DNA of 64,000 bases from Eledone cirrhosa (taxonomy: Eukaryota), in NCBI GenBank assembly GCA_964016885.1, contig OZ024743.1:181350001-181414000 (forward strand). The letters run 5' to 3'. The stretch's first letter is position 1, and each line of letters begins with the position of its first letter. The position numbers were made by a program, and so were the translations under genes. Below the pieces are notes generated by a model. The model was not told where the DNA came from. It saw only the letters and a program-made list of their open reading frames with translations, and did not search any database. Shown one piece after another: positions 1-63,120 of this stretch.

Positions 1-3000
1 ACAGAGTATGTGTGTATGTCACAGTGTATGTGGGTCTGTGATGCAGTGTATGTGTGTCTGTGACACAGGGTATGTGTGTCTGTCTTACAGTGTATGTGTA
101 TCTGTGACACAGTGTATGTGTGTCTGTGACACAGTATATGTGTGTCTGTGATACAGTGTATGTGTGTCTGTGTTACAGTGTATGTGTGTCTCTGTTGCAG
201 TGTATGTGTGTATCTGACAGAGTATATGTGTGTCTGTGTTACAGTGTATGTGCGTCTGTGTTACAGTGTATGCGCGTCTGTGACACAGTGTATGTGTGTC
301 TGTGGCACAGTGTATGTGTGTTTGTATTACAGTGTATGTGTGTCTGTGACACAGTGTATGTGTGTCTGTGACACAGTGTATGTGTATCTGTGACACAGTG
401 TATGTGTGTCTGTGACACAGTATATGTGTGTCTGTGATACAGTGTATGTGTGTCTGTGTTACAGTGTATGTGTGTCTCTGTTGCAGTGTATGTGTGTCTG
501 TGACACAGTGTATGTGTGTATGTGACAGAGTATATGTGTGTCTGTGTTACAGTGTATGTGCGTCTGTGTTACAGTGTATGCGCGTCTGTGACACAGTGTA
601 TGTGTGTCTGTGGCACAGTGTGTGTTTGTATTACAGTGTATGTGTGTCTGTGACACAGTGTATGTGGGTCTATGACACAGTGTATGTGTGTCTGTGACAC
701 AATGTATGTGTGCCTGTGTTACAGTGTATGTGTGTATGTGTTACAGTGTATGTGTGTATGTGTTACAGTGTATGTGTGTCTGTGACACAGTGTATGTGGG
801 TCTATGACACAGTGTATGTGTGTCTGTGACACAATGTATGTGTGCCTGTGTTACAGTGTATGTGTGTATGTGTTACAGTCTATGTGTGTATGTGTTACAG
901 TGTATGTGTGTCTGTGACACAGTGTATGTATGTCTGTGACACAGTGTATGTGTGTCTGTGACACAGTGTATGTGTGTCTGTGTTACAGTGTATGTGTGTA
1001 TGTGACACAATGTATGTGTGTCAGTGACACAGTGTATGTGTGTCTGCGATACAGTGTATATGTGTCTGTGACACAGTGTATGTGTCTGTGTTAAAGTGTA
1101 TGTGTGTCTGTGACACAGTGTATGTGTGTATGTGACACAGTTTATGTGTGTCTGTGTTACAGTGTATGTGTCTCTGTGTTACAGTGTATGTGTGTCTGTG
1201 ACACAGTGTATGTGTGTCTGTGACACAGTGTATGTGTATCTGTGACACAGTGTATGTGTGTCTGTGACACAGTATATGTGTGTCTGTGACACAGTGTATG
1301 TGTATCTGTGACACAGTGTATGTGTGTCTGTGACACAGTGTATGTGTATCTGTGACACAGTGTATGTGTGTCTGTGTTACAGTGTATGTGTGTCTCTGTT
1401 GCAGTGTATGTGTGTCTGTGACACAGTGTATGTGTGTATGTGACAGAGTATATGTGTGTCTGTGTTACAGTGTATGTGCGTCTGTGTTACAGTGTATGCG
1501 CGTCTGTGACACAGTGTATGTGTGTCTGTGGCACAGTGTATGTGTGTTTGTATTACAGTGTATGTGTGTCTGTGACACAGTGTATGTGGGTCTATGACAC
1601 AGTGTATGTGTGTCTGTGACACAATGTATGTGTGCCTGTGTTACAGTGTATGTGTGTATGTGTTACAGTGTATGTGTGTATGTGTTACAGTGTATGTGTG
1701 TCTGTGACACAGTGTATGTGGGTCTATGACACAGTGTATGTGTGTCTGTGACACAATGTATGTGTGCCTGTGTTACAGTGTATGTGTGTATGTGTTACAG
1801 TCTATGTGTGTATGTGTTACAGTGTATGTGTGTCTGTGACACAGTGTATGTATGTCTGTGACACAGTGTATGTGTGTATGTGACACAGTGTATGTGTGTA
1901 TGTGTTACAGTGTATGTGTCTCTATGTTACAGTGTATGTGTGACTGTGACACAGTGTATGTGTGTCTTTGACACAGTATATGTGTGTCTGTGTTACAGTG
2001 TATGTGTGTCCGTGACACAGTGTATGTGTGTCTGTGTTACAGTGTATGTGTGTCTGTGTTACAGTGTATGTGTGTCTGTGACACAGTATATGTGTGTCTA
2101 TGACACAGTGTATGTGTGTCTGTGTTACATTGTATGTGTGTCTGTGACACAGTGTATGTGTGTATATCACAGTGTCTGTGTCTATGACACAGTGTATGTG
2201 TGTCTGTGTTACAGTGTATGTGTGACACAGTGTATGTGTGTATGCCACAGTGTATGTGGGTCTATGACACAGTGTATGTGTGTCTGTGACACAGTGTATG
2301 TGTGTATGTCACAGTGTATGTCGGTCTATGGTGCAGTGTATGTGTGTGTGTGTTGCAGTGTATGTGTGTATGCCACAGTGTATGTGTGTCTGTTAAACAG
2401 TGTATGTGTGTCTGTGACACAGTGTATGTGTGTATGTGTGCCTGTGATACAGTGTACGTGTCTGTGTTACAGTGTATGTGTGTTCTACTAAACAGTTTAT
2501 GTGTGTCTCTGACACTGTGTATGTGTGTCTGTGTTACAGTGAATGTGTGTATGTCACAGTGTATGTGGGTCTATGATACAGTGTATGTGTGTCTGTGACA
2601 CAGAGTATGTGTGTATGTCACAGTGTATGTGGGTCTGTGATACAGTGTATGTGTGTATGTGACACAGGGTGTGTGTGTCTGTGTTACAGTGTATGTGTAT
2701 CTAGTGACACAGTGTATGTGTGTCTGTGACACAGTGTATGTGTGTCTGTGTTGCAGTGTATGTGTCTCTGTGACACAGTGTATGTGTGTATGTGACACAG
2801 TGTATGTGTGTATGTGACACAGTGTATGTGTGCCTGTGACACAGTGTATGTGTGTCTGTGTTACAGTGTATGTGTGTCTGTGACCAAGTGTATGTGTGTA
2901 TGTCACAGTGTATGTTTGTGTGACCCAGTGTATGTGTGTCTGTGTTACAGTGTATGTGTGTATGTCACAGTGTATGTGGGTCTGTGATACAGTGTATGTG

Positions 3001-3955
3001 TGTCTGTGTTACAGTGTATGTGTGTATGTCACAGTGTATGTGCGTCTTGACACAGTGTGTGTGTGTATGTGAAACAGTGTATGTGTGTATGTGTTACAGT
3101 GTATGTGTGTCTGTGGCACAGTGTATGTGTCTGTGTTACAGTGTATGTGTGTCTTTGACACTGTGAATGTGTGTCTGTGTTACAGTGAATGTGTGTATAT
3201 CACAGTGTATTTGGGTCTGTGATACAGTGTATGTGTGTTTGTGACACAGAGTATATGTGTATGTCACATTGTATGTGGGTCTGTGATGCAGTGTATGTGT
3301 GTCTGTGACACAGGGTGTGTGTGTATGTGTTACAGTCTATGTATTTCTGTGACACAGTGTATATGTGTATGTCACAGTGTATGTGTCTCTCTCTTACAGT
3401 GTATGTGTGTATGTGACAGTGTATGTGGGTATGTGATACAGCGTGTGTGTCTGTGTTACCGTGTATGTCTGTCTGTGACACAGTGTATGTGTCTGTGATA
3501 CAGTGTATGTGTGTGTGGCACAGTGTATGTGTGTCTATGACACAGTGTATGTGTGTCAGTGACAGTGTATGTGTGTCTATGGCACAGTGTATTTGCGTCT
3601 GTGACACAGTGTACCTGTTTCTGTGTTACAGTGTATGTATATCTATGACACAGTGTATGTGTGTCTGTGACACAGTGTATGTGTCTGTGTCACAGTGTAT
3701 GTGTCTGTGACAGTGTATGTGTGTCTATGACACAGTGTATGTGTGTCTGTGACACAGTGTATGTGTGTTTGTGACACAGTGTATGTGTCTGTGACACAGT
3801 GTATGTGTCTGTGACACAGTATATGTGTGTTTGTGACACAGTCTATGTGTGTTTGTGACACAGTGTATGTGTCTGTGACACAGTGTATGTGTCTTTGACA
3901 CAGTGTATGTGTCTGTGACAGAATCTATGTGTATCTGTGACAGAATGTATGCGTA
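1..3955. repeat. Minisatellite, ~22-bp unit ACAGTGTATGTGTGTCTGTGAC with 20-bp variants and higher-order blocks
   Basis: Unit read directly and repeated continuously from the window start; it decays after ~3900. All ORFs here are translations of the repeat. Confidence 0.97.
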
Positions 3956-4610
3956 TTTGTTGTTTTGCTGATGTAGAAATATTTATTTAAATCCAAAAGG
4001 GTTTCAGTGTCTCTCAGATTGAACATATATATAAGTGCTGAATATATATATGGCTATGTGAGGGAATTTGGTGTGGGCATGTGTGTATGTAAGAGAACCT
4101 TTTATTTTTAGTAACATCTTTTAATATTAGAAATTGGTTGGTGACTCTTTAAAAGTAAACACGTGATATGTAAGAGGAACGGGTTTATTTTAGAAACTGT
4201 AACGAGTTGGGTTGATGTGTGAAGTGAAACACTTAACTACAGCTCTTGCCTGCACCACAATCACCACTTCCATCACCACAAAAACAACAACTAAAAAAAA
4301 ACAACTATAACAACAAAAACTATTCCTGTCTTTGAATAGTTTCGATTCACCATGATAGTTTTAGTTGAAAATGACATTCTTTCAATGAAAGCTAAAATAA
4401 CGACAACGAAAGAGATTGGTTTAAAAATGTGACTGTTGTTATTTGTCGTGAAACTAGCTACTACTCATAGTTTCAATGGGATTGTTAGGTTCTTACTCAC
4501 ATCTTTATACTATATTCAATAAAAGGAAACGCACCATCACATAAATAGCGACACCAAACTCTCGAAAGTTCACCACTCCCTACAATAATACTTGACATTA
4601 ATTTCTAATG

Positions 4611-12815: not shown

Positions 12816-13575
12816 TAGGCATTTACGTTTAAGATTACTACATTTCAAATTGTAACTTAATTATATTTCGTAAATATATTTTCAGAAAGGCACAGCTTTT
12901 AACTTTGATTTATATTTAATGTTCTGTCACATATTTTGCACTTCCGGTATCTGATGACAGCTATTTTCATCAGCCTTTCACCATATCATACTCTATATCG
13001 TCTGGGGATTTTAGGCATCTGCTTATTTACTTCGGCCTCATACTTTACATTAGTTTTCGTTTAGCTTTTATTCTTCCTTTTCTTTTCTTGTCATTTACTT
13101 ATAACTTATTTATCATGTATATATATATATATAGGTTTGGTGGAACTTGGGGGGGGGGGGGGTAGGGGCATCGTCCCCTCAATAATGATATTTCTTTCAC
13201 CAAACTACCAAAACACACATCTATTTGTATATGCACTAAAATTTATAAATTTATGTTCATGTTATGTAGAGATAGGTGGGAGAGATAGATATAGATATAG
13301 AGAGGGGGGAGGGTTTGGTGGTAATTGATATAAATTTCTATTTATTTGCCACCAGGGCATCAAAGATTGGGACAAATACAAAGGGGGGAGTTTACATACA
13401 TTTAAAAAGACGTGTAAAAAACATATAACAAATTAAATTTAACAATCGATGTCCTCAATAGGGAGGGGCGTTGACATGGGTCGCACACACCCCCCGAAAA
13501 AATGTGCAACGATCCTCTTCAGGAGCACAAAGATCGAGGTGCTTCCTTCCTCTTCTCATTCTTCTCCTCTCTCAC

Positions 13576-16500
13576 CTACAGGCTGATATAGAGAGAAGGC
13601 CCATTCACTCGGGCCATTCTCGCTACTTTAACCCACCTTTCATAAAACTTGCTGGGGTAGAGCACCTCTCTCTCCATTCTGATCCTTCTTCTAAAGTGGT
13701 ACTTGAAAAAAAAGACCAGTTGTTGGCCGGAGAGAAAGGTGTCTGACCTCAGCCCTTTCAACCTTGTCCACCATACAACTTCTTTCGCCATAGCTATCAC
13801 ACAGAGGAAAACCGCCTCTCCTTCGTTTTTGAAAGGGGGAGGCGGTTTGATCGTAACAATGTTCTCGGTGGTCAACCGGATTGGTCCCACCCGCGACAGT
13901 AGTCGTTCCACATAGCCCCACAGGTCAGCAACGCTCGGGCACTGTACGAATGCGTGTGCGACGGTTTCCTCGTCACGCACGCATCTCGGACAGATCTTCT
14001 TCGAGGGGTACCTACCCGGGCGCCCGTGTCTGTAGAGCTTGTCCCGAACGGGTAGAGCTCCTCGGTAACATTGCCAAGCCAGGGACTTTTGGAAGTTGTC
14101 CATCGGTCCCGGGCCAAACGTCCTACCGAACAGACTGGCCAGCTGGTCTTCCTCCATGCCCAGAGCCTCTCCGAGAGCGTCGTCGCACTTACTGCGCACC
14201 AACCCTCTATAGAATGTTGAGGTTGAGTCTCCACTGATTGCCGGATCCGCTTGCCAGAGGGCCGTGAGCGCCTGGGCACATTCAATGTGCCAGTCGCCCA
14301 CTTTTCTCGGTCTTTGCTTGACCCAGGATTGCAGCTCGGTGAGTGAGAGGAGTCTCGGAAAGGCTCGCCTCACAAACAAGGCCCACACCGGCTGACCGGT
14401 GAGGAATACCTGGAGGTGCCGTAGCCTTAATGCGTGTCTACGCATCGTCAGCCACGGCATCCCCAGCCCTCCGTTCGAAGGGTGTTGACAGCAGATGGAT
14501 CTTCTCACCAAAGGACCCCGCTTCTTCCAAAGAAATCGGAAGAGCGCGCGCTCCATTTTGGCGAGTGTTTTCTCTGGGCAAGGCACGACGGTCAAGCGAT
14601 AGTAGATGACGGACGCTATATAAGCGTTCGCCACCCACGCTCGACGTTTCAGGGATAGTTTACACTCGGCCCACTTCTGGGTCAGTGCAAACACCTTGCG
14701 CGTTACCTCGTCCCAGTTTTTCTCCACCTGGAGGTCCGGTCCGAACCAGACCCTGAGCAGCTTCACAGGTCCCTCCGTCCAGCGTCCGACGATGCCGTCG
14801 GAGAGAATCGTTTTGCCCCTCCACGTCCCGAGTTGCAAACCGACGGACTTGTCCCGGTTCAGCTAGGCTCCTGTGAACCTTTCATATTCCTCCAGTAAGG
14901 TGCCGGTCTGCCCAATTTCCGAGGCGCACGACACCATTACTGTCACGTCATCGGCGTAGGCCGACACCGTTTTCCGCAATTCAGGTTCCAAGGGGATGCC
15001 CTGCAACAGCTCCAGCTTCCGCAGTAGTGGCTCGAGAGCCAGCACATACAGGAGGGAGGAGAGAGGGCATCCCTGTCGGATGGATCGCGTGATTTGGAAC
15101 GGCTCCGAGAGCCTGGAGCAGGTGTTGCTGCTGTGCATTGCAGCAATCCAGACCCTGAAAACGGGTCCGAAGCCTGCCGCCGCGAGTACCGCATCCAGGT
15201 ACCGATGGTCAACCCTATTGAACGCCTTAGATTGATCCAACTTGATCAGGGCCCCACCAAGGCCGGGTTCGTTCCCTACCCTCTCTACGATGTATCGCAT
15301 GAGGTGGAGGTTGTCGTGTATGGACCTGGACGGGATTGCGCATGTCTGCGCTTCTCCCACCAGGTTCCGGACGACAAGCGCCAACATCTTCGCTAACACC
15401 TTGGCCAAAATCTTTAACCCTGTGTTTAGCAGAGTTATGGGGCTGAAGTTATCTATGTCATCCCCTTGTTCTCGTCCTTCCTCACCAGCGTGACTACGCC
15501 CTTGGTCACAGAACTGAGAATTCTCCCGTTCTGTTGCCAGTTGCAGTAGACCGCCTCGAGGAGACCGGAGAACAAGCCCGGGATCGCTACATAAAGTTCG
15601 TATGGTAGACCATCGAGACCCGGAGATTTGCATTTGCCGCATTGGCTCAGCGCTTCCCCTATTTTAGCGGCTGAAATCGGCCTCTCGCAGGACTTCTCCT
15701 CCCCGTCCGAGAGCCGCGCCAGACCGTCGAGGTATGGACCGAAATCCATGGCCCCACCCGGCCCGCCGCCCCTCCCGAACAGTCGTGCAAAGCGCCGTTG
15801 AAAGACCGCGCTCATCCGCTCAGGTTCAAGGATCACGCGTCCATCCTGGTCCTTCAAAGACCGAATCGTGGACTTGTTTCCACTTTTTGCCTCTGTCACT
15901 CGGGCCCAGCTAACAGCTTTGGCTCCCTCGTTACCCAGAGCACGTATTTTACTCCTGACAACGCAGCCCTCGTGCTTCGCATCAAAGAACTGGTCTAGGG
16001 CCGTTCTTGACGCCAGCACGCCGGCCACGTTGCCACTCCTAATCGCCTCTTCTATTCTATTTGTTAATTCCCTTTCAGTTCTATTGTTATCTGATGCTAA
16101 TTCTCGACTAAAACCTATCGATTCTATTCTAATTTCTCTCTTGAGAGAGCCCCACCACCTGCTGTTGACAATTGCCCCCGTCAAACGCTGCTTAACTAGT
16201 GTGCTAATCCGCTTACTGTAACCTTTGTTTGTCGGTAAAGACAAGTTTAGCTTCCAGTAACCGGGTCCCTATCTATGAGTTCTATCAAGGTTGACCACTC
16301 CAGTCACCAACTTGTCATTCCAACAGTCAAAAATGAACATTCGTGGACAGCTTAATATGTCCCTATCCTTATTTCTAACTAGGAACCTATCTAGGTACGA
16401 CCTAGATGTTCCGCTGCGATTACTCCACGTCCACCGTGGCACAGTCGGAAAATCTAGTCGATATCTATCGGCCAGATCAAATCGGCCGATTAATCGTTTG

Positions 16501-16992
16501 AGGCTGTTACACCCCCTCTATCGGGACATGCCCCTACATAGTCCCAACGTGCATCCAGGATACCATTCCAGTCCCCCACTAAAAGCAAGGAGCGAGACGT
16601 CCCAGGAAATTCTCCAGGCATCGGAAGAAGTCCGGTCGCGGTGTCCCAGATGGGGCATACGCTGCCACCAGCCTAAAAGCTCCACCTTAACCACTGCCGA
16701 CGTCTAAAACCACCAGTCGACCCTCCGGGTCCAGGTGTACCTTCTGTGTGGCAAGACCCAGGTATTTTCGCAGCAGAACGACAACCCCACCACCACCCCT
16801 CGGCTGACAGAGAGATGCGTAGATCTCAAAGTCGTCGAAGATGGGGGCCAGTTGGCGCTCGCTGTTGATCCTGGACTCGCAAATAACCATTACATCCACT
16901 CTGTGCGACCTGAGGTCATTTAAGAGTTTGCCCTGTTTCCAGGACATCCCCAGGCCGCGTGCATTCACACATCCAACTCTTATATTGGCCAT
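13576..16992 (-). pseudogene. Tx1 ORF2 (APE endonuclease, reverse transcriptase, C-terminal Cys/His motif), disrupted
   Basis: IRVGCVNARGL, ICES, SPGLDG, LDQSKAF, RQGCPLS, YADD and CPRC..HAFVQC, split over several frames by frameshifts and stops. Confidence 0.95.
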
Positions 16993-17034
16993 GTTGGTGC
17001 TGAAGAGTTAAAAAGGAAGAGGAAAGGAAATTAC

Positions 17035-18846
17035 TTACCTCTTCGTCTCCTGGGGACCAGGCTGCACAATTTCCATGGGGGTGCTGGAAGGGTTGTTTGG
17101 TGGGGTGGTGGTTTGTGGTGGGGTGAGGACATCAGTGAGTGGTGGGATTAGGGTGTTTGGTGGGGTGTGGGTGTCTTCTGGTGTGGGGGTGGGGAAACAT
17201 CTCAATAGGACGCTGTTAAGTGGTTTGGTGCAGGTGGTCCCCACATGCATTGGATGGTTCTTTTTCAAAGTTACATAGGTTTCTGTTGGGACCCTAATCA
17301 TCATTAGGTGCGGTTTGTTCGCTGAGTAGGTGAAAGTGATCTCTTCGGTTTCCACCGAAGGGTTATTTTCTATCGCTTTCATCAAAGTTTTATTGTTCTT
17401 GTTAATGTATGTATAGTGTTTTGTTGTGTTGTGTTTGTTTTTGTTTGTTGTTCTTGTGCGTGTTTGCGTTTTGTAGTATGTGTTATGTTTTGGGGAGGGG
17501 TGGGGTTTTTTGTTTGTGATGTTTGTTCTGTTTGTGCTGGTGGTTGTGTGTTTGTAGCATTTTTGTTAATGTGGTGCCTTTTTTTTCCTTTTCACCTGTT
17601 GAAAGGGTTCTCCCTCGTCGTCACTGGGTGACGTTGATACGGAGTCCTCTTCCGTGTTGTTGGGGAGGGGTATATTTTGGGGTTTTGTTGTGGTTGCTTT
17701 TGTATATGTTTTAGGTGGGGAGGGGTTGGGTGGAACAGTGTTTTGTGTTGTTATTTTTCCGTATTGTTGTGGTTGTTGTTGTTGTGGTGGTGGTGGTGGT
17801 CGTCGTCGTTGTGTTGTTGCGTTCGGTGTTGGCAGAAGAGCCTTTTTTTTTACTCGTTAATTGAGGACAGGCAGCCTTCAGGTGACCCCTGCTTAAGCAG
17901 TGGTAACATGACGGCCGCCTTCCCTCCACTGAAATGTTTATATAAGTTAGCCCGTCCAGAGGCACGCGTTGTGGGATATTCACTATTCGTTCTGGGCTCA
18001 TTTACACCAGAACTTCTACGCTGGTCCCGCCAAATACACCTCTAGAGGACTTTCCTATTGAAATTATCTTGTCTTCATCAAAGTCAATGATTCCACATAG
18101 TATCCACCAAATATTTACATTTGGTGTGATTCTCATTATTTTTATTCTTTGTGTCCTTTTCCCCCTGTATGTGGGGAAAAAGGTGAAGCGGGGGGACACA
18201 ATGGGTGATACCGAGTACTTTTGTGCTGTTGACTGGTTGTTCATTAGCACCGAAATGCTACCAAACAGTTTTCCTTTTTGTATGAAGGTTATGTCCTTCA
18301 TTGCATCTTTTAGAACCAGCTCAATTTCATTTTGTGATAATTGAGCTGGTTTTCTTGTTTCGGTCGATATTCTCCTGAAAACCACAGTTTTCAGGACAGC
18401 CTCTCTACGTAATTCCTGTGGAGAATTGATGCTAAAAGCACCGTTTTCGCCAAAAGTCACGAATTGTTTTGCGTCTTGTAATAGTTGTTTAGCATTTTGT
18501 ATGTCTATAGGCATGTATAGTTCGTTTTTTTTTACAGTCTGTGCGAATGTTGTTTTGGTGTTGTTGTCTTTTTTGTTGCTGCTCTTGTTGTTACTGTTGG
18601 TAATATTGTTCATGTTTTCCTTGGTGTTGCTATTGTTGCAGTTGTTGGTTGTGGTGTTATTGTCATCGTTCTTGTTGTTGGTGCTGGTATTATTTACCGG
18701 GATTGGTTTCGTGGTTTCAATATTTTCAACGTTTTTCGATAATGCGAGGGGGAAGGCTGCAAGCTTTGTACTCTTACCTTCCCTCTACCACTTTTCTTAG
18801 TGGGCGTGGCACTCACGACAGTGTGCGAGGTGGAAATGGCATCCAT
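17035..18846 (-). pseudogene. Tx1 ORF1 (gag-like, CCHC zinc knuckle), disrupted
   Basis: CYHCLSRGHLKAAC = CX2CX4HX4C; N/T-rich low-complexity tracts; in-frame stop at 18002-18004; probable ATG at 18846 with a frameshift before 18613. Confidence 0.85.
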
Positions 18847-19574
18847 TGCTGACTACCAAATCTACACAGTTTTGAGATGAAAATGAAAATTTCGCAAAAG
18901 AAAGGGGCGAAAATTAGTTAACTCAACGTCTGCAGGCCCAGGCAAGGGGTTAACTAAACAATGCTATTAAATTAAGCAATGAACTCACAGTTTTTTTACA
19001 ATAATTCGTAAAAATCCGGAGCGAAGTAATTCACGTCTATATCAAGTGGTAATTGATATAGAGAGGAATAGAATTTGATTTTAGCAGATACAGATAGGGG
19101 GATTAAAAAAGAGTTTTATGTGATAGACATAGAGAGGTAGGGAGTTTAGGGGCACTCATGGGTCCCAAATAATAGGAGGCGGTGGCAATAATGGGGCGCG
19201 AGGGGGGGGGGGGCTTGGGAAATCAGTAATTGTATAGTGTACGTTTGTAAGTATGGGATATCTTGTAATGTTCTTATTTTGTCATATATAGTGTTTTTTT
19301 TTTATGTAAAATAAAATTATTAATAGATTCTCCACCTGCTGTATCAATAAGAATCACTTACAATAAAATTTCGCCGGAGATAGATTAGCAAAATTTAATA
19401 AGTGGGTGACTTGACCTTTTACAACTAACCCATTTCAAACTTTCTTTCTGCTAACACTCTCTCATCGTGTAGTGGAAGAGGATGGAGCCGGAAGATGTGT
19501 ATCTGGGGTGCTGAGGTAACAGAGGGAAGATTGTGAAGCCAAGGAAAACACGGGGATCCAAGGTACTTTACATA

Positions 19575-26316: not shown

Positions 26317-26817
<501 letters not shown>

Positions 26818-26971
26818 TCACAAATGCAATTTAAAAGTTAGTCGATTTTCCCCAATAGGGGGAGACAGTTTATATGGGTAACACATACCCCCGAAAAAAT
26901 GTGAAGCCCTCATCTCCAGGAGTACGAAGAGTTTGTACTCCTTTCCTCTCCTCCTCCTCCCTTTCCTCAAC

Positions 26972-29900
26972 CTACAGGCTGATATAGAGAGAAGGCCCAT
27001 TCACTCGGGCCATTCTCGCCACATTCACCCACCTTTCATAAAACTTGCTGGGGTACAGCACCTCTCTCTCCATCCTGATTCTTCTTCCAAAGTGGTATTT
27101 GAAAAAAAGAATCAGTTGTTGGCCGGAGAGAAAGGTGTCTGACCTCAGCCCTTTCAACCTTGTCCACCATTCAACCTCTTTAGCTATCACACAAAGGAAA
27201 ACCGCCTCTCCTTCGTTTTTGAAAGAGGGTAGCGGTTTGATCATGACAATGGACTCGGTGGTCAACCGGATTGGTCCCACCCGCTACAATAGTCGTTCTA
27301 CATAGCCCCACAGGTCAGTGACGCCCGGGCAGTGTGTGAATGCGTGCGCGACAGTTTCTTCGTTACGCACGCACCTCGGACAGATCTTTTTTGAAGGGTC
27401 CCTGCCCGGGCGCCCGTGCCTGTAGAGCTTGTCTCGAACTGGTAGAGCTCCTCGGTAGCACTGCCAAGCCAGGGACTTTTGGAAATTGTCCATCGTTCCC
27501 GGGCAGATGGTCCTACCGAACAGACTGGCCAGTTCATCTTCCTCTACGCCTAGAGTTTCACCGAGCGCATCGTCGCACTTGCTGCGGATCAACCCTCTTT
27601 AGAATGACGAAGTGGAGTCTCCACTGATCGCCGGGTCCGTCTGCCAGAGGGCTTTGAGCGCCTGAGCACATTCGATGTGCCAGTCGCCCATTTTCCTCTT
27701 TGCTTGACCGACCCAGGACTGCAGCTCGGTCAGCGAGACGAGTCGTGGGAAGGCTCGCCTCACGAACGGAGCCCACACCGGTTGTCCGGTGAGGAATACG
27801 TAGAGATGCCGCAGCCTGAGCGCGTGTTTGCGCATCGTCAACCACGGCATCTCCAGCCCTCCGTTAGAAGGGTGTTGGCAGCAGATGGATCTTCTCACCA
27901 ATGGAGCCCACCTCTTCCAAAGGAATTGGAAGAGCGCGCGCTCCATTTTGGCAAGCGTTTTGGCTGGACAAGGCACGACGGTCAAGCGGTAGTAGATGGC
28001 GGACGCTATAAAAGTGTTCGCCACCTCCGCTCGACCTTTCAAGGATAGTTTGCACTCGGCCCACTTCTGGATGAGTGCAAACACCTGGGCCGTCACTTCG
28101 TTCCAGTTCTTCTCCACCTGGAGGTCCGGACCAAACCAGACCCCGAGCAGCTTTACCGGTCCTTCCGTCCAGCGTCCGACGACGCCATCGGAAGGCATCG
28201 GTTTGCCTCTCCACGATCCGAGTTGCAAACCGATGGACTTGTCCCGGTTCAGCTTCGCTCCTGTGAAACTTTCGTATTGCTTCAGTAAGGTGCCGACTTC
28301 CTCGATTTGCGAGGCGTTCGACACCATTACTGTCATGTCGTCGGCGTAGGCCGACGCCGCTTTCCGCAGTCCCGGTTCCACAGGGATGCCCTGCAATAGC
28401 TCCAACTTCCGCAGTAGTGGCTCGAGAGTCAGTACGTACAGAAGGGAGAAGAGAGGGCATCCCTGTCGAATGGATCGCGTAATATGGAACGGCTCCGAGA
28501 GGTAGCCGTTCACCTTGACCCTTGAGCAGATGTTGCTGTTGTGCATTGCAGCAATCCAGCCCCTGAACACGGGTCCGAAGCCTGCCGCCTCGAGCACCGC
28601 ATCCAGGTAACGATAGTCAACACTATCGAAAGCCTTAGACTGATCCAAGTTGATCAGGGCCCCACCGAAGCCGGGTTTACACCCTACCCTCTCTATGATG
28701 TATCGCATGAGGTGGAGGTTGTCGTGTATGGACCTGGTCGGGATTGCGCATGTCTGCGCTTCTCCCACCAGGTTCTCGACGACAAGCGGCAGCCTCTTTG
28801 CCAACACCTTGGCCAAAATCTGTAACTCTGTGTTTAGCAGAGTTATGGGCCGGAAGTTGCCTATGTCATCCCCCTTATTCTCGTCCTTCCTGATTAGTGT
28901 GACTACGCTCCCGGTTACAGAACTGGGAATTCTCCCGTTCTGTTGCCAGTTGCAGTAGACCGCTTCCAGGAGACCGGAGAATAAGTCCGGCATTTCTACA
29001 TAAAATTCGTAGGGTAGACCGTCGAGACCTGGAGATTTGCGTTTGCCGCATTGGCTCAGCGCGTCCCCTATCTCAGCGGCTGAAATCGGCTTTTCGCAGA
29101 ACTTTGCCTCGCTGTCCGAGAGTCGCGGTAGGCCGTCGAGGTATGGACCGAAATCCATAGCCCCTCCCGGCGCGCCGCCCCGCCCGAACAGTCGAGAAAA
29201 GTGCCGCTGAAAGGCCGCACACATCTGCTTCGGCTCACGTATAACGTGTCCGTTTTGGTCCTTCAAAACCGAATCGTGGACTTGTTTCCACTTTTTTCCT
29301 GCGTCACTCGGGCCCGGCTAACAGGTTTGGCTCCCTCGTTTCCCAGAACACGTATTTTGCTTCTGACAACGCAGCCCTCGTGCTTTGCGTCGAAGAACTG
29401 GTCCAAGGCCGATCTCGTTGCTAACACGCTGGCTACGTTGCCACTTCTAATTGCCTCTTCTACTTTATCTACCAGTTCTTTCTCGGTTCTATTTCTATCT
29501 AACGCTAATTCTTTACTAAAAACTAACGAGTCTAATCTAACTTCCCTCTTGAGAGAGTACCACCATCTGTTGTTGACAATGGCCCCTGTCAAGTGCTGTT
29601 TAATTAAAGTGCTAATCCCTCTACTGTAGGCTTTGCATGTCGGTAACGACAAGTTCAGCTTCCAGTTGCCGGGTCCTTGTCTATGGGCTCTATCAAGGTT
29701 GACCATGCAGGTCACTAGTTTGTGATCTGAATAGGCAACTATGAACATTTGTGGACAGCTTAACATGTCCCTATCCTTATTTCTAACTAGAACCCTATCT
29801 AGGTACTATCTAGATATTCCGCTAAGATTAGTCCACGTCTACAGTGGCACAATCGGAAAATCTAGTCGATATCTATCGGCTAGGTCAAATCGGCCGATTA

Positions 29901-30386
29901 ACTGTTTGAGGATGTTACACCCCCCTTTATCGGGACATGCTCCCACATAGTCCCAACGTGCATCTAGGATTCCATTCCAGTCCCCCACTAAAAGCAAGGA
30001 GCGGGAAAAGTCTCTAGACGTTTGAAGAAGTCTGGCCGCGGTGTCCCGGATGGGGCATATGCGGCCACCAGTCTGAAGGGTCCACCTTCACTACCGTCAA
30101 CGTCTAGGACCACCAGTCGACCCTCCGGGTCCAGATCTACCGTCTGTGTTACGAGGCCCAGGTGTTTCCGCAGCAAAACGGCAACCCCACCCCCCGGCTG
30201 ACAGAGAGATGCGTAGATCTCAAAGTCATCGAAGATGGAGGTCAGCTGTCGCTCGCTGTGGATCCTGGACTCGCAAATGGCTACTACATCCATACTGTGC
30301 GACCTGAGGTCGTTTAAGAATTTGCCCTGTTTCTAGGGCATCCCCAGGCCGCGTACATTCACACACCCAACTCTTATATTGGCCAT
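26972..30386 (-). pseudogene. Tx1 ORF2 (APE + RT), disrupted
   Basis: 555-aa open stretch with FRPITLLN, LDQSKAFD, RQGCP and YADD; APE motifs YAP and SDHK; early TGG>TAG stop and several frameshifts. Confidence 0.95.
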
Positions 30387-30423
30387 GTTGGTCCTGAAAA
30401 GTTAAAAGAGGAGAAGAAAACAC

Positions 30424-31277
30424 TCACCTCTTCGACTCCTGGGGATCAGGCCGCACGGTTTCCATGGGGTTGTTAGGGGAGTTGTCTGGGTGAGTGGTGG
30501 TTTCCGGCGGGGTGGGGACGGAGATGTTTGGTGGGGTGGTGGTGTCTGGGGTGAGGGCAGGGAAACTTTTTTAAAAGGGCGCGGTTAATGGGTTGAACAC
30601 AAGGATTACCCACGTCCTTAGGAAAGTTTTCCTTTAAAGACTTATAGGTGTCCGTGGTTACGCTAATCATCTTTAAATTAGGTTTGTCTACACAGGTCGA
30701 AAAAGTTTTCCCTTCGGTTTTCACCGAAGGGTCGTTGGAGATGACCTCCATTAAAGTTTTATTTTTACTGTTTATGTATGTGTAATGTTCTTGTTGTGTT
30801 GCGGTGGTTTTTGTCTGTTGTTCTTGTGGGAGCTTTCGTTTTGTTGTAGGTGTTTGTGTTTGGAGTGATGTCGTGGTTTTGTTTTTGGGACGGGGGTTTT
30901 TTGTTTGTAATGTTTGTGTTGTTTGTGTTGGTAGTTGTATGTTTGTAGTGATGTTTGTTGTTTTTTTGTTCTTGTGGTGTCTTTTCTTCTTTCTTTTCGA
31001 ACGGAGAGGCTCTCCCTCATCATCACTTGGTGATGATGTGGGGGCCTCGTCCGTTGTGGTGTCTGTGTTATTTGGAAGGGGTATGTTTTGAAGAGCTGTT
31101 GTGTTTGTGGGTGTTTTTGCAGTGGTTTTAGGTGGAGTGGGGTTGGGTGGGACTGTGCTTGCAGGTTGGTTTGTTGTTCTTGTTTTGGTTGTGTTTGCGT
31201 GTTGTTGTTGTTGTTGTGGTGGTGCTGGTGGTGGTGGTGTTGGTGTTTTGGGTGTTGGCAGTAGTGCCTCTTTTTTT
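30424..31277 (-). pseudogene. Tx1 ORF1 C-terminal part
   Basis: T/N/Q-rich tract, then ISNDPSVKTE...PINRALLKKFP and METVRPDPQESKR*, homologous to the end of copy 1 ORF1. Confidence 0.8.
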
Positions 31278-31290
31278 TAGATAGATAGAT

Positions 31291-31411
31291 TTCTTTATTT
31301 GCCACAGGGGCGCACAAGAAAAGGGGACAATACAAAGACACATGCCGGGGATTTTACATACAGTCGTGTAAAAATATTGAAACAAACAATTATAACAATC
31401 GAAATCCCCAA
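31291..31411 (-). mobile_element. Very short 3' end of a related Tx1 LINE inside (GATA)n
   Basis: TTCTTTATTTGCCACAGGGGCGCACAAGAAAAGGGGACAATACAAAG resembles the 3' ends of copies 1 and 2; GATA repeats on both sides. Confidence 0.8.
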
Positions 31412-43209: not shown

Positions 43210-45745
43210 TACCCGAAAAGGTAGATGAAAGAAAAGTGCTTAATAAAAGATTCAGACGAAACCAAACACCAGTCTATAGAGATATGAAGGACAAAATAAT
43301 AAGTGTCACTGAGGCCCCATCCCAGAAAGACAGATTCCTTTTAGAGAAAAAAATGGGGTGAAAAGAAGAATTTCAACCAAGATGCAGTGTGGCTAAAAGA
43401 AATTCAAAAGAACTATTGCTCCTACACTACAACAAAAACATACGAAATAAGTGAGGGTACCCTTGAGACTGTGATAGGAAAACTCCAAGATAAGAAAACA
43501 CCAGGAAGAGACATGATTATCGGCTACTGGTGCAAAAAACTGATATTCTATCGGAGGTATCTTACCGACCTCTACCAACAAGTTCTTAAGGGAGATACAC
43601 TTATACCAGAATGGTTGACATTAGCACAAACATTACTGGTCCCAAAGAACAAACATACCCACTTGGCAAAACTACCGATCCATTGCATGCCAGAACCTGA
43701 TCTATACAGCCTGCCTGAACCTATTCCTCCAAGATCACTGTGAAAATACTAACATCATCAGAGATGAACAAGCAGCTGGAAAGAAAGGGGTTTGGGGATG
43801 TGCTGAACAACTCCTAATCAACAAAACTGCGATGTTGGAGGTGCGACAACTTAGGAGGAATATGGCTACAGTCTGGCTGGACTCGATTCTGTTCCCCACT
43901 CTTGCATGATAGTGGCCCTCCGACTTGCTAATGTCCCAGACATTATTATCAGAGCGATAGAGAAGCTGTCTTCTTCTGGGCTACTATCCTAAAGTTAAAG
44001 ACAGAGAAGAAGGACTCTATTTTCATTGATAAAATAAAATATCGCAGGGGTATATTTCAGGGAGACAGTCTCTCTGTGATATTATTTATCCTGTCATTAA
44101 ATCCCTTGTCCTTACTGCTCAAGAAATGTGAAGGATACAACATTGGCTCACAGGAGGACAGAAATACGAACCTAACCCATAATTTCTTTGTGGACGATCT
44201 GAAACTCTATGCCAAGAACATGGATGTGATGAAGAAAAATTTTGACCTGGTTACAACATTCTCAAAGGATATAGGAATGGAGTTTGGCCAAGATAAATGT
44301 TCATATATGATTGTAAAGCGGGGAAAAACAACAACCCAATCTAGCAACATTGGCATCAATGGTCTAACTGTTTCACCGATATCTGATGAGGACTGCTACA
44401 GATACCTGGGGATAGATGAGAACATATCCTATAATGGTATCTGTAATAAGGAACGCGTAACCAGGGAATACTACACCCGATTAAGAAAGATATGGTTATC
44501 GGAACTCTCTGCGCAAAACAAAACAGTGGCTCACAGTGTGTTTGCTGTGCCTGTCCTAACACCAACGTTTGGAATACTCAATTGGACGATAGACGAAATC
44601 CGAGCAGTTGATGTTGGAATTCGAAAAATACTGAACAACACCGGAAACTTCCACATCAACAGTGACATAGACCGCCTTTACTTGAAACGTAAGCAGGGAG
44701 GCAGAGGCCTAACATCAATCCAGACAGCATTTCAATGTCGCATCATATCTCTCCGACAACATCTACGAACCTCGAAGCGTAGGTGCCCGTCTCTCGAGCA
44801 AGTCTATCTGCATGAAACAGATAAGATCATGAGAGTTGGGCAGGAACTCCTCGAAAGATATTCCGTGTGATAATCAAAACCTCACACCTAGGGAAGTCGC
44901 TCAGCAGTATCGCAGTGAATCCATGGATGAAAAACTGCATGCTTATCAGCAAAAAATCATGCATGGATATGTTGCTAGGAAGCTCCAGAGTGAGAGTAAT
45001 ATAGATAAGGAAAGTAGTCTATCTTGGACCAACAACCGCTATATTGGCTCCCACTTTGAAGGATACGCTTTTGCAGTCCAAGAACAGGAAATAATAACGA
45101 AATACCTGATTCACAAAATAGATAGGGATGCAGGCAAAACACCTAGATGTGATAACAAGTGAAGACTCTGCAGAATTAACATCGAAGATGTGACCCATGT
45201 CATAAGCAGCTGTCCAAAGATGTCATCGCGGTACTATCTCCATATGAGGCATGATGTAGTGGCCAAAACACTGTACAATGCATTCCGTAGAAAAGATAGC
45301 TCCGATAATAAACACATTAAAAGCTACAGCAATGTGGAAGACATACATATACATAATATGAAAGAGTACTGGTGGGATGTTCCAGTAAAAACCCCAATAA
45401 AATGCAGGCATAACAGACCAGATATTATGATATGGGACAGGGAAAAGAAGGCATGCACAGTAGTGGAGGTTAGCTACCCAGCAGATGCCAATATAATATC
45501 AAAGATTAGCGAAAAGGAGAATATGTATGCAGAACTGATGAGAAACCTGCAGATACTCCACCCTGATTACACCTTCAGATTTATGCCTGTGATTATTGGG
45601 GCACTGGGATATGTTAGTAACTGCGTCAATACAAATCTCGAGAAGCTGGGCTTCACAGGAACAGAAAGAACACAACTAGTTAGGAAATTACAAGTACAAT
45701 CCATTAATGGAACAGTAAAAATATGTAAAACATTCCAAAAGTGGG
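43210..45745 (+). pseudogene. R4/Dong-clade RT-CCHC-RLE ORF, 5'-truncated and disrupted
   Basis: PGRD, RGIFQGDSLS, FFVDDLKLY, FGQDKC, YRYLG, RLYLKRKQGGRGL, MHGY, RHD, NRPDI; begins directly after (TACA)n. Confidence 0.93.
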
Positions 45746-62166: not shown

Positions 62167-63117
62167 CAGTTGCATTTATCTTGCCTTATGTTCATACGAG
62201 TTATCACCAAGTCACAACCTCAAGAGACAAGGTCCGTCATGTTCAAGAAAGAACACACATACACACACACATGCATCTTTAGGTGTTTAGACTTGTGATG
62301 TACTTATATTGACAGAATCTTCCTTAGTACATGGGCAGTTCCCATTAGTACTATATTTTGTATTTCTCCTATACGCGGGTTTCCTGGGATTTGCGATAAG
62401 TAATCATTATCCCCCTTAGTTATCATTCCTAGAGCGCCTACAACCACTGGTATTGTTTTAGTTGTCAATTTCCACATTTTTCCAATTTCTATCTCCAGGT
62501 CCTTATACTTGCTCAATTTTTCAAATGTTTTTATAGATACATTCTTGTCTATTGGAACGGGTATATCAATTAGAAGGCATACCCTCTTTTTAAAGTGCTT
62601 CAGTAATATATCAGGTCTATTTGCATCTATTTTTCGGTCTGTTTGGATGCTAAAGTTCCACAAGATTGAGATGTGATCTTTTTCAAGTACAGGAGGTGGT
62701 TGATTCTCCCACCAATTCTTTTGATGGGACAGGTCAAAATGGTTACACATTATCCAATGTATGTATTGTGCAGCTCTGTCGTGCCTGTTTAGGTATTCGG
62801 TTGGAGCTATAGGACTGCACATTGAAATTATATGATCAATGGTCTCTGGTTGTTTTTTACATACACGGCATAATGGGTTGCATCCATTTTTGATTATGTT
62901 GGCTTGGTAATTTTTTGTTGGTAGACACTGATCTTGTGCTGATATAATTAGTCCTTCAGTCTCCGATTTCAGTCCAGAGGATGCCAACCACTGATGGGTT
63001 AAAGTTTTGTCAACATCAGGATTGTTAGTTCTTTCTGGGTATTTTCCAAACAGAGGCTTTTCTTGCCATTTCTTAGCCAGTTTCTGTAGCAGTTCTTTCT
63101 TTGCAGTTACTTTTACA

Positions 63118-63120
<3 letters not shown>
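62167..63120 (-). mobile_element. Second Dong/R4-clade element 3' part, open ORF to 62304
   Basis: ETEGLIISAQDQ, CRVC..ETIDHIISMC, RHD, NRPDI, CLLIDI, KYKDLEIE; (ATT)n on both sides. Confidence 0.92.

Follow-up and report, generated by a model that had tools for sequence, protein, structure and literature searches.

Between the two reading frames of a LINE in the genome of the octopod Eledone cirrhosa lies a sequence that reads as a splice donor, and the question raised by this locus is what that donor is for. The window (the whole 64,000-nucleotide stretch of DNA that was analysed) contains two long copies of the element. The original prediction was that the spacer between ORF1 and ORF2 is a micro-intron, whose inefficient removal deletes the ORF1 stop codon and fuses ORF1 to ORF2 in frame, whereas the unspliced RNA is the one that retrotransposes. 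The matter is of general interest, given that it is only partly understood how a LINE obtains two proteins from a single RNA and how this A-rich RNA avoids being polyadenylated prematurely.

The element and its copies in the window

Copy 1 (13327..19066, minus strand) belongs to what we call family A. It was delimited by identity to genomic copies and by Pfam matches, and is near-full-length and decayed; its identity to other genomic copies is 94-96% across ~5.8 kb. ORF1 (17035..18846, minus), placed by translation with an inferred start, contains frameshifts and one stop, features a CCHC knuckle, and has a C-terminal half of low complexity; the ORF1s of sister copies are less broken. ORF2 (13576..16992, minus), which specifies an endonuclease, a reverse transcriptase (RT) and a C-terminal zinc motif, is also broken, and matches the Pfam families RVT_1, zf-RVT and, weakly, Exo_endo_phos. 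The poly(A) signal of the element is located at 13341..13346 (minus), and a short microsatellite-like tail follows. With stops and frameshifts in both ORFs, copy 1 is dead.

The spacer of copy 1 (16993..17038, minus) is 46 nt long and pyrimidine-rich, with AAC directly before the ORF2 ATG at 16992. A conserved 5' splice-site consensus (positions -3 to +6; 17033..17041, minus) lies over the ORF1 stop: the donor G+1 is at 17038 and the TAA at 17037-17035. The proposed acceptor is a CAG at 17000..17002 (minus), with its G at 17000, so that the stretch from donor to CAG (17038-17000) measures 39 nt. As ORF1 meets the donor in phase 2 and 7 nt follow the CAG before the ATG, removal of the 39 nt would join the two ORFs in frame. 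The layout of donor, stop codon, pyrimidine tract and CAG is thus as originally described.

Copy 2 (26723..31277, minus), identified by self-BLAST, is a 5'-truncated member of family B2 with ~82% identity to copy 1. It has the same layout, with a donor of the GTGAGT type (donor and donor-to-CAG stretch, 30394..30430, minus; G+1 at 30427, ATG at 30386) and a donor-to-CAG distance of 34 nt (30427-30394). Its truncated 5' end immediately follows another copy's 3' end and ATCT tail (31277-31330; poly(A) signal at 31299). RVT_1 and zf-RVT matches also mark LINE fragments at 43932-44867 (plus) and 62307-63119 (minus), a family D junction (L071) is located ~8.7 kb past the window end, and window positions 1-3960 are occupied by a long, strand-skewed tandem repeat (self-BLAST). 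The 3' UTR of copy 2 contains a short palindrome of a C-run, TATT and a G-run (26850-26861), which recurs in the 3' UTRs of the families read. The 3' UTRs, which otherwise cannot be aligned, keep both this palindrome and a terminal motif that precedes the poly(A) signal; the two are candidate recognition signals for the ORF2 protein.

The element is ~6 kb in size and has the organisation of an L1 clade LINE: an upstream ORF1, a short inter-ORF region, an ORF2 with APE endonuclease, RT and C-terminal zinc motif (Pfam), and a 3' UTR ending in a poly(A) signal and an (ATT)n or ATCT-like tail. The intact ORF2 of family D (1139 aa) best matches human L1 ORF2p (E 1e-52), with R2 at 1e-21. The best database match is an Argonauta protein (62%), and a coral protein named Transposon TX1 149 kDa is a homologue at 32% identity. 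The CCHC motif is visible in all five ORF1 translations shown, Pfam giving a weak zf-CCHC match (E=0.1) in one of four proteins and no RRM match in ORF1 (four proteins). The element resembles the Tx1 group, whose ORF1 types have been described (PMC5203782, in excerpt), in its two ORFs, its ORF2 of the endonuclease-RT-zinc type and the named TX1 homologue; the CCHC motif visible in ORF1 and the copies in microsatellite runs may be further common traits. The assignment to L1/Tx1-type LINEs is supported, with the Tx1 group as the putative placement within the L1 clade.

Families in the genome

We collected 292 ORF1/ORF2 junctions, all from this one genome. Collapsing identical ones left 253, which were sorted into 13 families or subfamilies (A, B, B2, C, C2, D1, D2, E, E2, E3, F, G and H). 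Families were discovered through Pfam, protein and DNA queries, which may miss some. The counts for A and B are biased upward, since these copies were mostly chosen by similarity or by a pattern demanding CAG, and the search for donor-less copies contributed some of the A, B and G rows. Representatives of the first eight clusters share 63-88% identity in endonuclease DNA. In a protein tree computed without two short rows (B2_W2 and C2_L132), B groups with A, G and H (90/99) and E with C and D (85/91), while the tree does not resolve F, which stays at the base. Distant relatives with DNA context were also sought in metagenomes, where none of 431 pattern matches was confirmed.

D and H are the youngest families and have many intact ORF2s; for H, the best 40 of 40 matches are 100% identical. 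The families include members that are currently amplifying in a cephalopod genome. In Octopus vulgaris, 13 recently active L1-Tx1 families have been listed (PMC13282606); the main text of that paper does not mention splicing, introns or ORF1.

Several features of genomic organisation were observed in passing. Element 5' ends adjoin (ATT)n runs in C, D, E, E2 and E3, and tandem arrays are present. Full-length elements lie head to tail at L284-L285 (G000:C28:122866000-122885999) and at G000:C1:4225286-4255693; a D2 array has a period of 6048 nt and identical ORF1 translations, and the spacing in an H array is 5.7-7.1 kb. Each D unit begins right behind the (ATT)n tail of the preceding one, which suggests that D arrays grow by insertion into their own microsatellite tails. 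Family H is concentrated near chromosome ends: on C1 (443 Mb), 28/28 ORF1 ends listed are at <31 Mb or >431 Mb, and on C2 (416 Mb), 17/17 listed are at <21 Mb or >395 Mb. In family G (L148, L150, L156 and L172), the ORF1 end is tandemly duplicated over 75-76 nt and has, in addition, a 23-nt extension.

Conservation of the donor

When the family-majority letters are anchored on the donor, positions -1, +1, +2, +5 and +6 are invariant in 13/13 families, -2 and +4 agree in 12/13, and +3 is always a purine. Agreement drops outside the U1 pairing window, to 7/13 at -3 and 8/13 at +7. For comparison, 37/174 four-fold sites in ORF2 are invariant (12 families). The donor occurs as GTAAGT, GTGAGT or GTAGGT, the off-pattern exception being a C at -2 in D2. 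It scores 8-9 of 9 in 14/14 long copies scanned, and when the final 80 nt upstream of each ORF2 ATG were shuffled, a site with at least 8/9 consensus letters arose in only 0.6-3.1% of cases. Of the original interpretation the donor is thus supported, being conserved far beyond chance. The families share ancestry and each row was anchored on its best donor-like match, so that 13/13 signifies strong retention rather than 13 independent events.

ORF1 meets the donor in phase 2 in A, B, B2, D1, D2, F and H (assigned in B, F and H from their homology to A), in phase 1 in C, C2, E, E3 and G, and in phase 0 in E2. TAA, TGA and TAG stops all occur among the phase-2 families. The stop lies away from the donor in G, where ORF1 passes the donor, overlaps ORF2 and stops 13 nt inside it, and in E2, where it is found late in the spacer. 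With the motif kept across three phases and the stop elsewhere in G and E2, neither the stop codon nor the protein can account for it as a by-product. The distance from donor to ORF2 ATG is 25-46 nt across families. Within this genome, the alignments thus show a conserved orphan donor for which protein coding offers no explanation.

Acceptor and branch point

A U2-type micro-intron requires a 5' splice-site consensus, a conserved branch point, and a conserved 3' AG in the fusion phase. The first is present in these elements; the other two are not. The branch-like TTTAAC singled out in copy 1 did not hold up, as its TAAC reads TACC in 15/29 near-identical copies. An AG between donor and ATG is usual in A (51/51 copies), B (27/28), B2 (2/2), E2 (3/3) and E3 (1/1, a single copy), but rare or absent in C (1/22), C2 (0/2), D1 (0/31), D2 (2/44), E (1/8), F (1/20), G (0/21) and H (0/20). 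A spacer AG is thus the norm in only 5/13 families, and the 13 family-modal spacers contain five, against 3.8 expected from composition, which is chance level. The CAG itself is limited to A, B and B2; at the homologous spot the close sister family G has CAC, and H is without that segment. Of the motifs expected to be conserved among genomic copies, then, the donor is, and neither the branch motif nor the spacer AG is.

D and H are the youngest families, have intact ORF2s and are without a usual spacer AG, so that both evidently amplify without a micro-intron. Typical minimal animal introns measure 50-90 bp (PMC13644364, in excerpt). The 34-39 nt of the proposed introns are probably too short for efficient splicing, and the CAG of family A is likely an incidental AG that ends the pyrimidine tract and is tolerated. 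Read-through of a single in-frame stop was considered as another route to ORF2; it is possible only in A and D2, where the spacer keeps the frame, and not in B, C, D1 or H.

The micro-intron of A and B could also be one instance of a more general scheme, in which low-level splicing to a nearby acceptor that shifts between families yields an ORF1-ORF2 fusion. In A, B, B2 and E2, a rough acceptor score ranks the spacer AG above every other site of the element (one A copy with a variant spacer, which scored lower there, is the exception), and this AG is in frame, with two independent origins. The first YAG downstream of the donor is in frame in 10/13 families and 7/9 lineages (p ~0.02 when ORF2's own frame bias is allowed for), and the N-terminus of the endonuclease would survive such a join in A/B, E2, D and F. 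However, the YAG rule is post hoc, and a first-AG rule gives only 5/9 (p ~0.24). The frame is lost in C, C2 and E3, the join would cost E and G the residues of the first strand, and the branch motif is not conserved. Family H has its first YAG 83 nt past the start of ORF2, and a join there would delete Asn10, which aligns with Asn14 of the L1 endonuclease, a residue that we take to be catalytic.

Spliced genomic copies

The search for copies from which the spacer had been precisely deleted recovered no exactly spliced A/B junction in the genome, as opposed to 515 unspliced ones. Among 41 A/B-type ORF1 ends that are not followed by G, none is spliced: family G accounts for 22, and the other 19 are explained by point changes or small deletions. 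Family D has 73 such ends, and the 70 that were read include no canonical splice. In family H, 303/303 ORF1 ends continue with G, and 52/52 sampled are unspliced. The non-G tests miss joins whose second exon starts with G, a gap that is covered for the A/B micro-intron and for 52/303 H copies only. Two large deletions near the D donor (L301 and L329) were rejected as splice products, as one breaks past the donor and the other breaks at a short microhomology without AG. None of ten listed joints skips 17000-17038; these come from contigs in three runs of one sample at genomic-looking depth and say nothing on expression.

The RT of L1-type elements favours the RNA that encodes it (cis preference). 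It is therefore against the fusion that the absence of spliced copies weighs most heavily: a fusion RNA encodes its own RT and should be copied into the genome, yet only unspliced A/B copies were recovered. With an acceptor AG and a fusion phase that vary by family and with no spliced copy, the micro-intron is not supported by the sequences as the mechanism by which this family expresses ORF2. The wider scheme, in which the clade sets its ORF1:ORF2 output by means of the spliceosome (a low-rate join with its frame under selection, as the 7/9 lineages might suggest, and a fusion protein giving RT in trans to the unspliced RNA), we regard as improbable. If true, a splice-made ORF1-ORF2 fusion would be, as far as we could find, the first such route in an L1-clade element.

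Cis preference bears differently on a distant, lineage-variable acceptor in the ORF2 stop TAG, the 3' UTR or the host sequence. Splicing to such a site would make a subgenomic, ORF1-only mRNA similar to that of copia/EVD elements; as this mRNA makes no RT in cis, it would rarely be copied into the genome, and missing spliced retrocopies are what would be expected. In 10/12 families scored, and in H in the alignment, the ORF2 stop is a TAG that follows a pyrimidine-rich stretch; if spliced to this TAG, ORF1 would terminate after at most 1-2 further residues in A, C, C2, E, E2 and E3, and D has a strong acceptor in the 3' UTR instead. On the other hand, D1 and D2 (0/20 TAG) are without an acceptor at the ORF2 stop, ORF1 would be extended by a long tail in B, B2, G and most F copies, and spliced copies are missing from the A/B-type and D-type ends and the H sample described above. 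A rough acceptor score applied to whole elements revealed no acceptor conserved in all families beyond codon effects. The only AG column kept in 15/15 rows, ~1875 nt into ORF2, was rejected as an acceptor because it is an Arg codon after Phe, and 29/55 conserved Arg columns keep AG equally well. We regard a distant acceptor as an unlikely partner for the donor.

A possible role for the donor

As the donor is present in every family examined and a matching acceptor is missing in most, the signal is likely a U1 control site, not a tiny intron. Our tentative reading, to which we assign a probability of about 0.45, is that the donor is a binding site for U1 snRNP on the unspliced bicistronic RNA, where it probably guards against premature cleavage and polyadenylation. 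U1 would bind the conserved donor at the ORF1/ORF2 boundary and suppress nearby cryptic poly(A) signals in the A-rich 3' half of ORF1, and ORF2 would be translated from the unspliced RNA by termination-reinitiation over the short, pyrimidine-rich spacer. Consistent with a U1 site, conservation of the donor is confined to the U1 pairing window, and the motif is kept with no acceptor kept and no spliced copy. The in-frame first YAG in 7/9 lineages (p ~0.02) counts against it, not being predicted by this model.

Poly(A) hexamers lie upstream of the donor in most families. AATAAA or ATTAAA occurs within 550 nt upstream of the donor in A (50/51), B (24/28), D1 (30/31), D2 (44/44), E (8/8), F (16/20) and H (20/20), is mixed in G (11/21) and is rare in C (5/22). 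This is weak evidence, since ORF1 is A-rich and about one hexamer per 550 nt is expected by our estimate.

The motif may also be kept for a reason other than U1, as part of a termination-reinitiation signal or hairpin, or within an internal promoter at the DNA level, in which case it would resemble a donor only incidentally. Only 25-46 nt separate it from the ORF2 ATG, the ORF1 stop mostly overlaps or adjoins it, and termination-reinitiation in LINE-1 and SART1 uses local RNA signals (PMC5972666, in excerpt). In family A the spacer and the donor region are predicted to form a hairpin (p=0.012-0.038 in comparison with shuffled spacers), and hairpins masking the site are likewise significant in C, C2 and F. 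In 9/13 families the hairpin is at chance level, however, and its register is family-specific, which rules out a universal donor-masking hairpin. Nearly all tolerated changes fit a 5' splice site, conservation ends at the edges of the U1 window, and in G and E2 the ORF1 stop and the motif are found apart. We therefore doubt that a non-U1 role accounts for the motif, although the hairpin may tune access to the donor in A, C, C2 and F.

Comparison with known systems

A U1 site at the ORF1/ORF2 boundary would have its closest parallel in the Arabidopsis retrotransposon EVD and other Ty1-copia elements, which have a conserved 5' splice site near the end of the structural gene; the donor of the octopod element also lies near the end of its structural ORF. 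According to excerpts of PMC5580714, U1 bound to EVD makes splicing (to shGAG) possible and also keeps the full-length RNA from terminating prematurely. EVD belongs to the LTR elements, has a single ORF and contains an intron that has been demonstrated and whose position is conserved, whereas the octopod element is a bicistronic LINE without a conserved acceptor.

A second parallel is provided by retroviruses. Excerpts of PMC3694450 describe how the major donor of HIV-1 suppresses a poly(A) signal 195 nt upstream; in HIV-1 and foamy virus the donor acts through U1 on a poly(A) signal ~200 nt away, in foamy virus without a need for splicing, and RNA structure modulates access to the donor. The retroviral donor is in the 5' leader and controls a strong, authentic poly(A) site, whereas the LINE donor is in mid-element and the nearby hexamers are cryptic and putative.

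Mammalian LINE-1 and silkworm SART1 are bicistronic with a short spacer or overlap, as is the octopod element, and their ORF2 is made by termination-reinitiation (PMC5972666). L1 also gives rise to spliced species, among them SpORF2, a spliced transcript that expresses ORF2 (PMC2896524). In the excerpts of these two papers there is no mention of a conserved donor at the ORF1/ORF2 boundary of LINE-1 or SART1. Our search, which covered literature listings and main-text excerpts, found no published report of such a donor in Tx1/L1 elements.

By analogy, the LINE donor would work most like the 5' splice site of EVD/copia and the major donor of retroviruses, while belonging to neither class. A U1-type site that is held through three reading frames points to co-transcriptional control of the copia/retrovirus type, which in these octopod families would now extend to a non-LTR element.
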